This document shows, piece after piece, positions 5,376 to 57,300 of a stretch of DNA of 64,000 nucleotides. The notes below the pieces were generated by a model, which was given only the letters and a program-made list of their open reading frames with translations, did not search any database and was not told the DNA's origin. A program made the position numbers and the translations under genes. Position 1 is the first letter of the stretch, and every line of letters begins with the position of its first letter. The DNA is from Paraspadella gotoi. Taxonomy: Eukaryota; Animalia; Chaetognatha. The stretch is from the NCBI GenBank assembly GCA_051294375.1, contig CM119267.1, forward strand, positions 9,201,709-9,265,708, read 5' to 3'.

Positions 5376-6322
5376 ATTTTAATTTCTCGTCGAGGAATTA
5401 GATATTAGAGTGGAGCTCTCAAGAAGTTATTTGAGTGATCAAACAAGGATATTTAGACGTTAGATAAGTACAAAAAATATTTTTATATTGTCTCGGGAAC
5501 AGAATAGTAAAATACAATATATTTGTAGTAATATGCTTATAAAATAATAAATTTTTAAAAAAAATTTAAACTTTTAATAAAGATTCAGATTTTTCATAAA
5601 AAGTTAAATCAAAAATATAAAACATTTTATCAAAAATTATGTTGTTTTCAGCATTTAAAACGGGGGGGGGGAAGGTGAAAATTTATGACTTTATGACTTT
5701 TTTCTGTAGTAGAAACTTATATATGTTAAAACGTTGGTCATTTTTTGCGGTCTAAACATTAAAATATCAAATAACATATTAACATATTTTATAAAAGTTT
5801 TTTACGGCGAATCTAAATATTTAAAAAAAAATCTTTTGAAATTTAATGATTTTATAAGGATATTACTTCTTTTAAAAAAAATTTTTTTAGCATAACAGTA
5901 TAGTATTATTTAAGGTTTTCATTGTATTTTGACTTTCTTTTTGCTATTTAAAATAGTTTAGAAATGAAACGAAAAATTCGTTGGAATAGCAATTTTATTT
6001 TTAAATTTTATTTTTAAAATTGCTATTCCAACGAATTTTTCGTTTCATCTCTAAACTATTTAAGGTTTTAAAATTTGTTAAATACATGTCAATAGGCGGC
6101 AAAAAAATCATGTTCAATCATTCAATATTTTCATCACTCCACCCTAATATATACGTATCACCTCTAAAATATTTGTATTACTCGTATGTTAATTTATTTC
6201 CAATTTGCGTTTTTCTTTTCAATTTCATATTTCCCAGGGTGGTTCTTAATTTTAATGGTCTTCAGACCATGAACCTTCGTTTTAATATTTCCATTTTTCT
6301 TTCTAGAAAAGTTATAAACGCA

Positions 6323-22015: not shown

Positions 22016-26986
<4,971 letters not shown>

Positions 26987-42489: not shown

Positions 42490-44232
42490 ATGAGCTCTGG
42501 GTTGGATTCCGACATGGAGGATGAAGCTCGAGACTCCGACGAAGGCGAAGCCGAACCGATCAGGATTAAAAAGCTTAAGATCGATTCCTCACTTCGTGTG
42601 CCCATCGCTTCGTTTGAGAGGTAAACAACTAAACATCTCTGATAATGATTTTTTTTTTGGGGGGGGGGAGGGGTACCGGTAGGGTGAGTCATATGCCAAA
42701 AGTTTTTTGGATCGCAAAGAACATCTAACACAAAACGGGTGGGCCTAAAAAAATAGGTTTCCACCAATCACTACTCAAATTGATTGAACACCCTTAGCGC
42801 TACCAGCGCTTGAAGGATTTTTGGCACACCTTTCACATCAAAATTCACTGTGTCTAAAGCATAAAAGATTTTATTGTCCAACCTTATTTATCAGTTAGAA
42901 AAATCTATGGAGTTAATTCATGTCAAATTTCAAGACAAAACTACATCAAATAGCTTTACAACATCATCAGCAATCTGCTGGAGGAGGTAGAAGCCATTAT
43001 ATTGATGTCTATATCTTTTAAGTTGGGGGAGTAGCACAAAGTGTTTCTATATAGTTTTATTCACAAATAAGTGCTCTAAATGATAAAATAAGTTTTTTAA
43101 AAAAATATCAGTGTAGTCACATCCTGGAGGATTTTTTCTGTACAAAACCTATAATATACTAAAATATACACCAAATATTGTATTATAATTTCTAATATAG
43201 TATTAATAAGTTAAGCAAGATAGGGTAAAACTGTTTGATAAATTTCATCTTGATTGATCCACAACTTCTCAAAGGAGCTTCTTTTTAAACTCCTTGAATT
43301 AAATCTCCACATGCTATCAATTTGAAAAAAATAAAAATTATACTTTCAAAAATAGCTTTATTAGTTGCCAAAACACTCTGGGTTCAATGTTATTTCATTA
43401 TATTAAGAGTAACATTCTTGACATGCTCTGTAGAGGCTTCCCCAATAAGTTGAAGGATGTGGACGAAATGTTGCAGGTGACAATTTCTTTATGAAAGCCA
43501 TTCACTTTTAATTAAAAACACAATTTTGTTTTTAAAACTAAACCCCTAATCACATTGATATATTTGATTGAGATGCGCTCACATCCTTATGGATTTTTCT
43601 CGTCAGAGACTGCTTGAAGGATGACAAATATATATAAAATATTTCTATTATAATTATTTTGATGATCAAATTTGCACAAAAAAAAATCTTAAAGTATAAG
43701 GATCTCGCAAGGGTATAGTATCAAAGAAAATTAATGAAAAAGTACTATAATCTAATTTGCATATTGCAGTAAATCATAATGAAGTGGAAATTCAAACAAA
43801 AAATACTTGAATCGATATGAACAAAGAAAATGGACACACATTTCAACTTCCTCACTGCCTCATTAATGGAACTTGATAACTAGATACATTGTTAGGTAGT
43901 TAAACCATAAACCGACAAAAATAGGCAGTAAAAATCTTAAAAGAATAGGTTCGAGCCTCCCTTCAATGATAACCAAAATATTGATGCGATGATAACCAAA
44001 GGATTGATGCGATGATAACCAAAAGATTGATGCGATGATAACCAAATATTGATGCAATGATAACCAATAATTGATGCGATGATAACCAAATGATCGATGT
44101 GATGAAAACCAAATGATTGAGGCGATAATAACCAAATGGTTGATATGATGATAGTCATTCATTGATGTGATGATAATCATTCATTGATACGATGATAGTC
44201 ATTCATTGAAGCGATGATAGTCATTCATTCAA

Positions 44233-44263
<31 letters not shown>

Positions 44264-47200
44264 AGAAAGAGAATAAATCCACCAAAAATCTCGGATGTAA
44301 ATTTGGGATTTTGCATTGAGAAAAAGCGCGGAATAAATGGTGATAATAAAAGTTTTTAAAAGGAAAAAAATAATCAAAATTTTTCAAAAAACGATCACGC
44401 AAGAGATCGTACAGAGAGAGAGAGAGACAGAAGAGAAAGTCAGAGAGACAGAAAGAGAGAGAAAGAGAGAGACAGACAGAGAGAGAAAGAGAGAGAGAGA
44501 GAAAGCAGGACAGCAGCTGGAAGGCAGCTGAACAGTCACTGCAAAGCCTGAACTAGTTTTTTTAAAAGGTTCAGAAAAGGCAGCAGCTGACAAAAATAAG
44601 AAGAAAAATACATATATAATTTAAAGAAATAAAAGAAAGGAAAAAAATGTTACAATAATCTGAATTTTTCAAAAAACGAACGATCACGCAAGAGATAGTG
44701 CGATGATAGTCATTCATTGATCCGATGATAATCATTCATTGATGCAATGATAGTCATTCATTGATGCGATGATAGTCATTCACTGATGCGATGATAGTCA
44801 TTCATTGAATTAGAGAGAGAGAGAGACACAGAGAGTGTACGAACACTAGTGGGTTCGTGCGACTTCGAAATCGGGAATCTAATTTGACGCCATCGATCAA
44901 ATAAGATAGAGAGAGAGAGACAGAGAGAGAGAATGAATACACGGATACGGTCATGGGCACACAGTCCGCGGCCTATACTATATATATATATAGAGAGAGA
45001 CGGAGAGAGAGAGAGAGACAGAGAGAGAGAGACGGAGAGAGAGAGAGAGAGAGTAGTTGCCCCTCAACGGCCACGAAATCTAGGCCAAGTAAGTTATTGT
45101 ATTTTGGGATTTTGTATTGAGAAAAAAGCGCGGAATAAATGGCGATAATAAAAGTTTTTAGAAATAAAAAAATAATCAGAATTTTTCAAAAAACGAACGA
45201 TCACGCAAGAGATCGTTCAGAGAGAGAAAGACACACACAGAGAAAGACAGAGAGAGACGGAGAGAAGCGTAACATTTCTGCGTATGAGTTATTCTTCACT
45301 TTTTCTAAAATAAATCCACGAAAATCTTGGATGTAAATTGGGATTTTATATTGAGAAAAAAGCGCGGAATAAATGGCGATAATAGTTTTTAGAAGCAATA
45401 TAAAAGGAGATAGACCGACGCGGGTCTATTACCCCTCTCCTTCTCATTCACCTCCTCCTCATCCTACTCCCAATGATTCGGGGCCGCGTTCACGAGATTC
45501 AGTTCACCTTTCTCTCTCCTCCTTCTTCTTTGTTGTCTTCTTTATCGTCAGTTTTATCTTCCTCTTCGTCGTCATTTTCGTCGTCATCTATGCCGTCGTT
45601 TTAATCGTTTTCTTCCTTGTTGTTGTCGTCAGTTATTTTCTACCAATCAATCAATCAGAAAACTTACTTAGTCTTAGAAGCCATTTGCAAATTTGCAGAT
45701 TTACAGTTAGGAACACATTTAAACTGATTCACTGATTCAGACAAGAAAAGCAAAAAAAAGTGAATAAAAATTTGGGTTTTTTGTAAAAAAAAGATCTATA
45801 TATATATGTATATTTATATAAGACAAAAAAGAGAGCAATTTATTTGTTTGTCAAAAATTTTTTCAAAATAATTAAAATTTCAATTAATAAATCTTACCTT
45901 TTTTATTTAGTTTCGCGGAGAAAATAATTTAGCGTTACTGTTTTTGAATTATGTTAATATCATTTTGTTATTAAAAATAAAAAATTTAAAAAATGTAATC
46001 GCGGAAACAAAATATGTTGTTACCTACGAATATATAATATTGAAACTAATATAGTGTTATAATCATCATAATTTTTAGCAAATTTGATCATCAAAATAAT
46101 TAAATAGAAATATTTTATATATATTTGTCATCCTTCAAGCAGTCTGTACGAGAAAAATCCATAAGGATGTGAGCGCATCTCAATCAAATATATCAATGTG
46201 ATTAGGGGTTTAGTTTTAAAAACAAAATTGTGTTTTTAATTAAAAGTGAATGGCTTTCATAAAGAAATTGTCACCTGCAACATTTCGTCCACATCCTTCA
46301 ACTTATTGGGGAAGCCTCTACAGAGCATGTCAAGAATGTTACTCTTAATATAATGAAATAACATTGAACCCAGAGTGTTTTGGCAACTAATAAAGCTATT
46401 TTTGAAAGTATAATTTTTATTTTTTTCAAATTGATAGCATGTGGAGATTTAATTCAAGGATGTTTAAAAAGAAGCTCCTTTGAGAAGTTGTGGATCAATC
46501 AAGATGAAATTTATCAAACAGTTTTACCCTATCTTGCTTAACTTATTAATACTATATTAGAAATTATAATACAATATTTGGTGTATATTTTAGTATATTA
46601 TAGGTTTTGTACAGAAAAAATCCTCCAGGATGTGACTACACTGATATTTTTTTAAAAAACTTATTTTATCATTTAGAGCACTTATTTGTGAATAAAACTA
46701 TATAGAAACACTTTGTGCTACTCCCCCAACTTAAAAGATATAGACATCAATATAATGGCTTCTACCTCCTCCAGCAGATTGCTGATGATGTTGTAAAGCT
46801 ATTTGATGTAGTTTTGTCTTGAAATTTGACATGAATTAACTCCATAGATTTTTCTAACTGATAAATAAGGTTGGACAATAAAATCTTTTATGCTTTAGAC
46901 ACAGTGAATTATGATGTGAAAGGTGTGCCAAAAATCCTTCAAGCGCTGGTAGCGCTAAGGGTGTTCAATCAATTTGAGTAGTGATTGGTGGAAACCTATT
47001 TTTTTAGGCCCACCCGTTTTGTGTTAGATGTTCTTTGCGATCAGACTATTTTTCCTTACAGCCTTGGTATGCCGCTGAGTTCTAAGTTCAAAGGTGCCTC
47101 GGCGGCAGTGTTCGACGTCAAGTCCAGCTATCTCTCGTCAACTGAAACGAACATGAACCAAGTATTGGCGATGGAAATACCTATTGTAGAAAATGGCGAT

Positions 47201-54325: not shown

Positions 54326-57300
54326 ATGCCTTTTATCGTATCCTTGATGAGATCGCAGTTGTCAACGTACAACGTATATTTTTTGGTTATTCTCATGCTA
54401 TCTCATTTGATGCTGCAAATCAACCGATTCATTCTCGCTATAGTAGCTCAGCCCGTCGCTCAAGCGTTGCATTTCGGTGACCAGGCGTGCATGCGTAATA
54501 AGTCAATTGAGATAAATAACGTCAATTGGACTGACCAAGATGTGGACTCTGTTTGCCGCGGAGCAAACAATGTAAGTATGAATTCAATAAAATACTTAAC
54601 TCAGGCTTTCGATTTCTTAAGGGTATTTTATGATATGTACTAATGTCTTCTGTCAGTTTCAATTCCTTTGAACGATACCAGAAAGCTATAATACTGTGAT
54701 GTGTTGTTATCGTGTATATTTGTACTAATTTTTATCATTTACTTATACTTAATATTAATAAAAACACTTCAATAACGATATTTTTAACTTTTACTTTAAG
54801 GCTTCTGATTGTTATGACCTTGTCACTGACGAAAACGGCTTTTCTCTGTGCGCTTACGATTATTTTGGTGGTGGATTGGAATATCAAATTCTGGTGGGTC
54901 CAGTCTACATATTCGTCTTCACCTTTAGTGGAATTTTGATGGGCTTTCTTGCCGATCGTTACAATCGCAAGAACCTGCTTGCCCTTTTCCTTGCGCTCTG
55001 GTCTATCGTCATAGTACTAATGGCTTTTGTCACACAGTACTGGCAGGTTATTTCTCGTAAAAGAACTTTGTGTCATTGCCAAATTTTATCGAGGCTCTCA
55101 TTTTTTTTAGCTGCTGGTTCTTCGTCTACTGCTCGGCTTCACCCAAGCAGGGTGCGTTCCTTTTGCTTCGTCGCTGATCGCCGATATCCTGTCGGCGTCA
55201 CTGCGCGGTGCCGGGATAGCCTTCTTCGAGATCGGCGTTTACTTTGGCTTTAGCCTTGCCTTCGTCGTGGGCAACCTCGTCACTGAGGCGGATATTTTTG
55301 GCTTTGCTTGGAGACCGGCCTTCGTCGTTGCCGGGGCGCCCGGTGAGAGGCCGGAGAAAAGTTTACATGTTTCCGCCTAACTAGTAGTAATACTCTTAAC
55401 ACTGATGAGGTTTCCCCAATCCCCATATTAGGCGTTCTTCTCGCGCTTGTGATCTTGGCGACAATTCGAGAACCGGAACGAAAAACCCAGTCACTGCTCA
55501 ACGCGGATGTTGTAGGAGCAGACCCAGACCAAAATTTGGGGTGGAAAAAAACGTCGGAGCTGTTTTGCCGTCCCTTTCTTTTAGTTTTCTTTCTCGCCAG
55601 CGCCTTGAGAATGGGGGCCGGCTATTGTTTCGCATATAATAATCAAGTAAATCAGTTGTTGGAGAATGAGCCGTTTTATTTGACAAAATAACCCGTTTAT
55701 ATTTGAATGTATCATATTTATTTTTTTATTAATAGATTTATTTTGCCATGATTGGAGAGTCGGCAACCTCCATCGCTCGCTGGATGTCGTGGGTTCCTGC
55801 CGTTTCCGGTTCCATCGGTTGTCTGCTCGGCGGAATCATTTCCGACCGCGTCGCTCCACGTCTCGGCGTCGTGGGAAGAATTTGGGTCGTCGTGGCCTCT
55901 CTCATACTCGCGTCTCCTTTTGGATGTGAGTTACGAGCTATTTTTTATCTTTTCCTCAAATTAACTTTGACTATTTTGCCTTAGCGGGAGTGCTATTTCT
56001 TTCACCACCATATTGCTACCTCGCGTTGATCGGCAATTATATTCTCGGTGAGACGTTTATCGGAGTTTGTATTACTATCGTGGTCGAACTCTTTCCCGTC
56101 AGGATGCGCGCCTCAGCCGTTGGTGTTTATATTTTCGTTATTCAAAATATCGGGGGAAATATGGAAATGTTCATACCTCCTCTCAGGCAAGGACCGTTAC
56201 GAATTATGAATTTATGGCAACAGCCGGGCTGCCTGTGATGCCCATTGGGATGGGGCATCTCACTGTTGGCTTTGGGGGCTTCCGACCCTCAGTGATGCCT
56301 CCAGTCACTGGCGCGGTTACCCTAGGATGGTCTCGCTTTGCCAACGCAGAGGGAAGTCGTTAGGACTGTGGATGGAACACTACGCCTGGGATGGTGTGTT
56401 CCCCCTCTGAGCCAATGGATTTGGCTGACGGATGGTGGACGTGAGGCAGTGTGAATATACTGCCACAGGATCCCCGGGCCAAGACATCACTCAGGTTCCT
56501 CAAGCCTGAGAGGTGTCTGACAAGACTGTTACCATAGTGGGAGAGAGAGAGAGAGCGCGAGTTGTGGGGCATAGGCGTTTGTCGTAGCGTACCCCAGGGG
56601 CATAGGCGTTTGTCGTAGCGTACCCGAAGTCGGCAGGGCATAGGCGTTTGTCGTAGCGTACCCTGAGAAGGTTGCGTGTTCGATAGTAGGGCTCACCACT
56701 TATGGCAACAGCCGGGCTGCCTGTGATGCCCATTGGGATGGGGCATCTCACTGTTGGCTTTGGGGGCTTCCGACCCTCAGTGATGCCTCCAGTCACTGGC
56801 GCGGTTACCCTAGGACGGTCTCGCTTTGCCAACGCAGAGGGAAGTCGTTAGGACTGTGGATGGAACACTACGCCTGGGATGGTGTGTTCCCCTCTGAGCC
56901 AATGGATTTGGCTGACGGATGGTGGACGTGAGGCAGTGTGAATATACTGCCACAAATTAATGTTTTCTGATTGTCTGGCTTATTGATTTATCGTTTGATT
57001 GCTATACTTAATCCATTGTACAATGTTCAGGCATCTAATGCAAACTACTTATCAGTCCATGTCGACGTTTAAAAGCCTACAATATTCCTTGTTTGTAATG
57101 TACCCGGGAATGTATTGGGTCAGCGCAGCCCTGTACATCGTCACCATACTCATGTTAGCGTGCGGTTTAAGCAACGAGTTTCACGTCAACGACGATCGGT
57201 ATGAAATCATGAACATATTTTTTTCACCAAAGTTTCTTTTAAATGTGGAGATATTTTCAGAAGAGCTTGCGGAGATAACCGAATCGATCCCTTGCGGCGG

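Follow-up and report, generated by a model that had tools for sequence, protein, structure and literature searches.

A miniature long terminal repeat retroelement with a predicted twister ribozyme in each repeat: a candidate animal retrozyme in Paraspadella gotoi

The element, its family and its primer site

The DNA considered here is a stretch of 64,000 nucleotides from Paraspadella gotoi (GenBank assembly GCA_051294375.1, contig CM119267.1, positions 9,201,709 to 9,265,708), referred to as the window, and the subject of this report is a short retroelement at 56213-56954 on its minus strand. The element is 742 bp long and lies in an intron of a gene for an MFS transporter. It is bounded by two long terminal repeats (LTRs) of 254 bp (56701-56954) and 255 bp (56213-56467) with the ends TGTGGCA..TGCCATA, and AATT stands at both flanks. 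The LTRs are distinguished from each other by a single substitution and by an additional G in a run of Gs. The interior of 233 bp holds a primer-binding site (PBS), three 29-bp repeats, a (CT)n tract and a short purine run that precedes the 3' LTR. An earlier note, made from the letters of the window, had described an element of this length with these LTRs, their two differences, TG..TA termini and an AATT duplication, and self-comparison together with contigs that leave the element at its borders bears this out. The note had also recognised no coding capacity, which agrees with a longest ATG frame of 93 codons on the minus strand and with the absence of any known protein domain above the Pfam threshold (the best match, DUF4074, is below it at E 0.027). 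Being shorter than 1 kb, with LTRs, no protein and many dispersed copies, the element has the properties of a terminal-repeat retrotransposon in miniature (TRIM). The two LTRs, the non-coding interior, the 4-bp duplication and the PBS are also features of plant LTR retrozymes. The element is a real, young and abundant non-coding LTR mini-retrotransposon of TRIM size, and each of its LTRs contains a motif with the layout of a twister ribozyme, which suggests that it may be an animal counterpart of those retrozymes.

The host intron has a GC donor and is 98 nt long without the element. Assemblies of public sequencing runs, labelled X1, X5 and so on, were compared with the stretch, and the contig edges of run X9, which is guessed to be an RNA run, match splicing of this intron exactly (25.0 and 31.0 nt into the bins), with the joined exons in frame. 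The ribozyme strand of the element is antisense to the host gene, so the host message would be spared cutting; this placement is that of one insertion and proves no orientation bias. The window also encodes a UBA3 with 65-79% identity to the 120 matches listed, of which those that are named are all animal; in a tree of 35 rows, 34 of them picked by hand from these matches, it falls together with three unnamed proteins and no others. The source genome of the window is a compact, invertebrate one.

There is no second copy of the element within the 64-kb window, and its abundance is seen in the assembled runs. The examined stretch is covered by 8,453 contigs in run X1 and 2,646 in run X5. In run X1 the summed depth over the element is 2.4e5-1.5e6 as against 238 in the flank, values that are not convertible to copy number. 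At least 159 contigs of this run (38, 43, 38 and 40) pass from the 3' end of the LTR into A+T-rich flanks that are unrelated to one another, with the break exactly at 56212/56213 or 56700/56701, and at least 17 exit the opposite end of the LTR at 56955 (figures from 19 of 826 rows). These positions fix the TG..TA termini. In runs X1 and X5 contigs also connect the element with each of its two flanks and show no difference, and thus this insertion is present in both samples. At 56670, contigs of runs X5, X9 and X10 leave the element into one common G+C-rich sequence. A second subfamily has the LTR and the 29-nt primer region in common with the element and a different interior from 56670 on; that interior is perhaps the leader of a helper element. 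Runs X13 and X14, from other organisms, have no contig on the motif, which does not prove its absence there. Searches for relatives gave 3 matches in metagenome contigs, all of them 19-20-nt chance matches in bacterial DNA, 15 in genome contigs, none with the P4/L4 half of the motif, and none in viral contigs. The 523 contigs of run X9 on the stretch are not counted as evidence of expression, as passive copies in introns or untranslated regions or traces of DNA could account for them; contigs give no strand, level or ends, and a circle junction would read like the LTR itself.

The PBS is made of two blocks. On the plus strand, 56666-56683 and 56689-56698 are the 3' half of a tRNA-Trp(CCA), with five unrelated nt in place of the eight of the tRNA, and the duplex of the PBS with tRNA-Trp has a calculated energy of -58.5 kcal/mol. 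Both blocks are matched exactly by only one of 13 tRNA loci (L011), which lies in a bacterial bin and is used as a stand-in for the animal's own tRNA-Trp; we infer that it is a eukaryotic-type tRNA gene. Block 2 ends at the A of the T-loop motif TTCGA, and so its partner in tRNA-Trp lies past the 18 nt that usually serve as primer region. Primer sites of two blocks, with opening of the T arm, are also known from Ty1 and Ty3. The earlier note had assigned the PBS to tRNA-Arg, which has to be replaced by tRNA-Trp on the two-block match; three bacterial-type tRNA-Arg genes match the 18-nt T-arm block, not the acceptor block. A tRNA gene or short interspersed element at the PBS was likewise rejected, with no tRNA found by ARAGORN in the window and a T stem that is unable to close. 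Another locus (L010, in G001), a tRNA-Trp half with CCA, was considered as a relative and rejected, as it is without an LTR pair and has no likeness to the element beyond those 38 nt.

Members of the CsRn1 clade of Ty3/gypsy elements have a tRNA-Trp primer and a 4-bp duplication (PMC3630058, PMC3587641), and their LTR ends are given as TGTGGYG..MSYYAMA (PMC3601003). Compared with the integrase motifs in Table 3 of PMC3601003, the LTR ends of the element agree with CsRN1 in 11 of 14 letters (6/7 and 5/7), the best of 8 clades, the next being gammaretroviral with 9 of 12. The Trp primer, the 4-bp duplication and the LTR ends point to this clade, and the helper of the element is likely a CsRn1-type Ty3/gypsy element. 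No reverse transcriptase frame was recognised by eye among the 67 frames of at least 120 aa in the window. A separate locus in a bin labelled as a bacterium (L025, G001:C523:40000-56613) has frames that by eye resemble BEL/Pao, together with an env-like frame, and an exact tRNA-Trp 3' half with CCA; it is probably animal DNA in a bacterial bin.

Table 1. Coordinates of the element's features, of its predicted RNA and of the host intron
Feature	Positions	Strand	Basis or remark
Target-site duplication AATT	56955..56958	.	adjoins the element's 5' end
5' LTR, 254 bp, TGTGGCA..TGCCATA	56701..56954	-	ends backed by loose-end contigs
TATA-like hexamer TATATT, LTR position 9-14, possible promoter	56941..56946	-	inferred only
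P5-permuted twister motif, 5' LTR	56753..56833	-	T1 and T2 fully paired; P2 3/4; P4 3/4; P1 two pairs closed by CUAG; P3 hairpin
Predicted cleavage site U^A, 5' LTR	56806..56807	-	homology to Rfam twister consensus; 148 nt of LTR before, 106 after
PBS block 1, 10 nt, 2 nt from LTR	56689..56698	-	complementary to tRNA-Trp acceptor end and CCA
PBS block 2, 18 nt	56666..56683	-	complementary to tRNA-Trp variable loop and T arm
Three 29-bp repeats	56566-56594, 56597-56625, 56635-56663	-	fold stability no better than shuffles (z +0.97)
Purine run GGGGA, weak candidate polypurine tract, 3 nt ahead of 3' LTR	56471..56475	-	sequence
3' LTR, 255 bp	56213..56467	-	self-comparison
Twister motif, 3' LTR	56265..56345	-	one T1 mismatch at 56328, a CpG site
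Predicted cleavage site U^A, 3' LTR	56318..56319	-	homology to Rfam twister consensus
Target-site duplication AATT	56209..56212	.	adjoins the element's 3' end
Predicted unit-length RNA, 488 nt, 57% G+C	56319..56806	-	cut-site geometry
Host GC-AG intron of MFS-transporter gene	56187..57030	+	contig edges of run X9 and exon reading frame

The twister motif and its variation among copies

The twister class of ribozymes was reportedly described by Roth et al. in 2014. Read from 56833 to 56753, the motif in the 5' LTR consists of P5 (GUUGGC), AAA, P2' (GCGA), GA, T1' (CCG), P1 (UC-CUAG-GG), U^AA, P2 (CCGC), GC, a P3 hairpin of 21 nt, P4 (AGGG), U, T1 (CGG), AAGC, P4' (CCCC), AAA and P5' (GCCAAC). 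The order of the strands is that of a motif opened at P5, where six pairs enclose it, and closed at P1 by a hairpin of two pairs and CUAG; twister permutations, including type P5, are named in PMC10085705. Every conserved letter of the Rfam twister consensus core is present in P5 order in both LTRs, and the 12 conserved residues (U^AA; the catalytic G followed by A; GC after P2; U-NNN-AAGC in L4) are complete in each. The P5 layout given in the earlier note stands as to order and conserved residues; what the note had not flagged is that P2 and P4 form three of four pairs each, with mismatches of C56804 with A56821 in the first P2 pair and of A56777 with C56762 at the base of P4. The pseudoknots T1 (three pairs) and T2 (two pairs) are complete in the 5' LTR. 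In the 3' LTR T1' reads CCA, not CCG as had been claimed for both, and a T1 pair is thus lost through one of the two differences between the LTRs. The cut positions that had been predicted, 56807/56806 and 56319/56318, do lie 488 nt apart in the geometry of the motif.

A descriptor built on the Rfam consensus fits the 5' LTR in its strict form and the 3' LTR when a single T1 mismatch is allowed, and has no other match on either strand of the 64 kb. It was written after the motif had been seen and allows three of four pairs in P2; with it, a match arose in 1 of 20,000 shuffles of the LTR and in none of 40 shuffles of the window. A study of natural type-P1 twisters, of which more than 2,600 were assayed, showed that mismatches in P1, P2 and P4 are tolerated, and that one mismatch in a pseudoknot of 3-4 pairs lowers the mean cleavage from 0.76 to 0.65, P5 forms being outside that test (PMC11662667). 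A hammerhead ribozyme was not found in the Rfam search at E up to 10. Judged on its sequence, the motif in each LTR makes a convincing P5 twister that is below threshold in Rfam and is predicted to cleave itself.

The variants among the contigs of run X1 show where the motif changes within the family. At 1% or more of the summed depth there are 19 alleles at 18 sites within 56756-56823; 68 positions were assessed, the edges of the stretch being insensitive in variant calling and copies less than 80% alike falling outside the count. All four transversion sites are in the P1 and P3 loops (P 1.5e-4 with 9 loop positions of 68, or 2.9e-3 with the CUAG ends and the A linkers counted as free), and none of the 12 conserved residues varies at 1% (P 0.035 before correction for base content). 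Eight of the 12 stem changes keep or gain a pair and four break one, three of these at CpG. The T1 change in the 3' LTR of this copy is one of the pair-breaking CpG changes and has a share of 1.7%. Outside P3 the most frequent stem change (4.3%) creates a pair at the P4 mismatch, and the seventh P3 position, where both LTRs of this copy have a private mismatch, is paired in 97% of copies. In run X11 a single contig has deletions confined to the P3 loop, and one diverged and otherwise damaged X1 contig has a double change from A-U to G-C in P3. With the threshold set at 5%, variation affects 13 of 121 sites in the LTR part upstream of the motif as against 1 of 72 non-loop sites of the motif (Fisher P 0.019, from 40 of 41 rows). 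This pattern agrees with selection on the twister fold, short of proof by covariation.

A predicted circular RNA, a competing fold and other explanations

It is rather probable that the element is an animal LTR retrozyme built on twister, with a 488-nt RNA that is circularised and likely copied by CsRn1-type enzymes; the name retrozyme is used on the basis of the predicted cleavage and circle. The minus strand would be transcribed from the 5' LTR or via read-through, and an LTR promoter has been described in a plant retrozyme (PMC12029980). Both twisters would then cut at U^A, leaving a 5'-OH and a 2',3'-cyclic phosphate, and free the 488-nt monomer. A host ligase, which we take to be of the RtcB type, would close this monomer into a circle. 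Circularisation by a host ligase has been proposed for plant retrozymes (PMC4918200). The monomer is without a terminal repeat (R), which makes the usual first strand jump impossible, and therefore circularisation would be the simplest way through. The tRNA-Trp would prime, and copying would proceed through 106 nt of the LTR and over the junction into the remaining 148 nt, so that the whole LTR is rebuilt. Finally a CsRn1-type integrase would insert the DNA with a 4-bp duplication. It seems improbable that the element owes its twister, along with the LTR, to the helper, which would then be a protein-coding CsRn1-type element of this animal with the same self-cutting LTR and would replicate via a ribozyme-cut circle that replaces the first strand jump.

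A number of results weigh against a working twister and a circular RNA. No match in the window attains the gathering score of its Rfam family. Twister-P1 scores 23.2 bits where its gathering score is 67.2, in part an artefact of the wrong permutation, and neither twister-P5 nor twister-P3 is among the matches listed, in a search where overlapping clan matches are masked by the best one. A search of a trimmed range, made to unmask twister-P5, gave only twister-P1 at 15.2 bits. The check with Rfam twister models that the earlier note had proposed thus went partly against it, with no model at threshold and no P5 match listed. The polypurine tract before the 3' LTR is only a weak GGGGA. The C-A mismatch in P2, which is beside the catalytic G, has no variant at 1% and is therefore family-wide, and among the contig variants no covariation was seen in P2, P4, T1 or T2. 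At 5%, conservation extends to the 54 nt that follow the motif (1 variable site) and to the 233-nt interior (3 variable sites), and thus the motif is not alone in varying little. In addition, the variant shares are summed contig depths, which count founder copies and not independent events.

The folding calculations add to these points. The energy minimum of the isolated motif is a competing hairpin, or rod, at -29.9 kcal/mol as against -17.5 for the twister helices without pseudoknots. In the rod, GGGU before the cut pairs with GCCC of L4/P4, CCG of P2 is joined to CGG of T1, and the cut site is found in an AA/AA loop. For the whole LTR, a pseudoknot-free model gives pairing probabilities near 0 for P4 and P1 and an ensemble that is split between P2 (0.73) and the rod helices (0.25), while in the linear 488-nt monomer the two ends are joined via P2 with a probability of about 0.7. 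Folded as a circle the 488-nt RNA has -165.5 kcal/mol (z -2.8 versus 100 shuffles) and is 59% paired, compared with roughly 70% in plant retrozymes. By analogy with the blocked hammerhead of plant retrozyme circles (PMC4918200), the rod may be an off state that protects the circle. Alternatively, it could be the sign of a poor ribozyme.

Another explanation is a twister that does cut but defines no more than one end of a linear RNA, with a short R that allows the normal strand jump and no circle. For example, the transcript could stop before the 3' motif is complete and the ribozyme could make the 5' end, as is the case with HDV-like and twister ribozymes in R2 and Perere-3. Setting a 5' end is the known role of twisters in retroelements (PMC8501958, PMC7761336), a P5-permuted motif requires 54 nt 3' of the cut, and the competing hairpin could give the two copies of the motif different cutting rates. 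However, a sequence scan of the whole element found no AATAAA or ATTAAA, nor does it have a run of four T that could end a transcript near the 3' motif. The T1 mismatch of the 3' LTR, as a minor CpG variant (1.7%), is no family trait, and because both LTRs are rebuilt from one template any asymmetry in cutting between them must be kinetic. A linear RNA with one ribozyme-made end is unlikely.

It is distinctly unlikely that the twister is a captured and inactive one in an ordinary TRIM, whose LTR would be conserved as a hairpin for packaging or dimerisation, although the sub-threshold Rfam score, the family-wide P2 mismatch, the competing hairpin as the energy minimum and the conservation of adjacent LTR and interior sequence would all be consistent with this. 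In the competing hairpin 26 of the 68 assessed positions have no partner, among them the catalytic G, the two As that follow the cut and the AA in L4. These residues are invariant at 1%, which the rod does not explain, and the twister loops are variable. With 13 common variants in the adjoining 121 nt, loss of such residues would be expected in a ribozyme that is out of use. That a working ribozyme acts as a brake, destroying most transcripts (which would limit copy number or double-stranded RNA) and leaving uncut RNAs in the alternative fold to be copied by the normal LTR route, is very improbable: a stable alternative fold does exist and the LTR pairing probabilities are split between folds, but the family is very abundant and a self-destructive motif would soon be lost under selection among copies, yet the core is the least variable part of the 5' two thirds of the LTR.

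Relation to known systems and significance

The earlier note knew of no animal LTR retrozyme built on twister, and the literature searched agrees: full-text searches, judged mostly by titles and openings of abstracts, listed neither a twister in a true LTR nor an animal LTR retrozyme, and a prior record is possible in Roth et al. 2014 with its supplementary lists or in Repbase. A full-text search for CsRn1 together with a ribozyme found nothing. The closest likeness is to the plant LTR retrozymes, which are also non-coding and have a ribozyme motif per LTR, a 4-bp duplication, a PBS, Ty3/gypsy-type ends, a unit RNA without R and a fold that can block the ribozyme (PMC4918200). They differ in that they use a type III hammerhead and tRNA-Met and live in plants, whereas the element has a P5 twister, a two-block tRNA-Trp site, TG..TA CsRn1-like ends and an animal host. 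Their LTRs are 300-400 bp and their RNAs 600-1000 nt, compared with 254 bp and a predicted 488 nt here, and cleavage and circles have been demonstrated for them, where for the element they are predicted (PMC4918200). With no type III hammerhead, tRNA-Met PBS or plant host, the element would work like a plant LTR retrozyme and is not a member of that group.

As a twister, the motif shares with type P5 the U^AA, P2, GC, P3, P4 with its U-NNN-AAGC loop, the G-A, both pseudoknots, the opening at P5 and the closed P1 (core as in PMC8501958 and PMC11662667). It departs from that type in being under every Rfam threshold, in the mismatched first P2 pair, in its 21-nt P3 and in lying in a true LTR, twice per element. 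Twister variants of Perere-3 in Schistosoma mansoni are also found with an animal retroelement, whose RNA they are thought to cut; however, this is one ribozyme at the 5' end of a protein-coding long interspersed element that inserts by target priming, without LTRs, PBS or circle (PMC8501958). In the same paper an LTR-type reverse transcriptase is located within 10 kb downstream of 1.6% of twister variants (PMC8501958). Twisters also occur in viroid-like circles of unknown origin (10.1101/2022.07.19.500677).

Among animal elements, the Helenus-like TRIMs share a length below 1 kb, the order LTR-PBS-polypurine tract-LTR, the lack of protein, a 4-bp duplication and a gypsy helper, and CsRn1 elements share the Trp PBS, the 4-bp duplication and the ends (PMC10886601, PMC3630058, PMC3587641, PMC3601003). 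No ribozyme is reported for either in the available text, and Helenus has a tRNA-like piece in its LTR where the element has internal blocks complementary to a tRNA (PMC10886601). Animal non-LTR retrozymes have in common with the element an animal host, the lack of coding sequence, a unit RNA cut by ribozymes and circles, which here are predicted; they differ by a type I hammerhead in tandem repeats, by the lack of LTR, PBS and polypurine tract and by their tie to Penelope-like elements (PMC7761336; bioRxiv 10.64898/2026.07.22.740005). In the latter preprint the animal retrozymes are non-LTR ones and the word twister is absent (10.64898/2026.07.22.740005).

The window has other repeats at a distance from the element. 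A non-coding element at 42710-47042 has 973-bp terminal inverted repeats that are 99.3% identical and enclose AG-rich and short tandem repeats; it looks like a young foldback element or non-autonomous DNA transposon, and no target duplication was seen by eye at its ends. Related A+T-rich tandem repeats are found in opposite orientation at 25990-26609 and 43964-44835. Two short palindromic elements of 111 and 152 bp, at 5951-6061 and 23727-23876, are 83-90% self-complementary and are possibly miniature inverted-repeat transposable elements.

The mini-retroelement with its two twister motifs is probably a version of the LTR retrozyme idea that evolved independently in animals. If this is true, the same trick would have been invented independently with another ribozyme, primer tRNA and helper clade, and it would be the cut in both LTRs that matters and not the class of ribozyme. 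It would also give a clear job to twister ribozymes, most of which are without a known role, and would add a source of viroid-like circles in animals. As a short, abundant and young family, the element would offer a direct test bed for the model in which a circle replaces the first strand jump.

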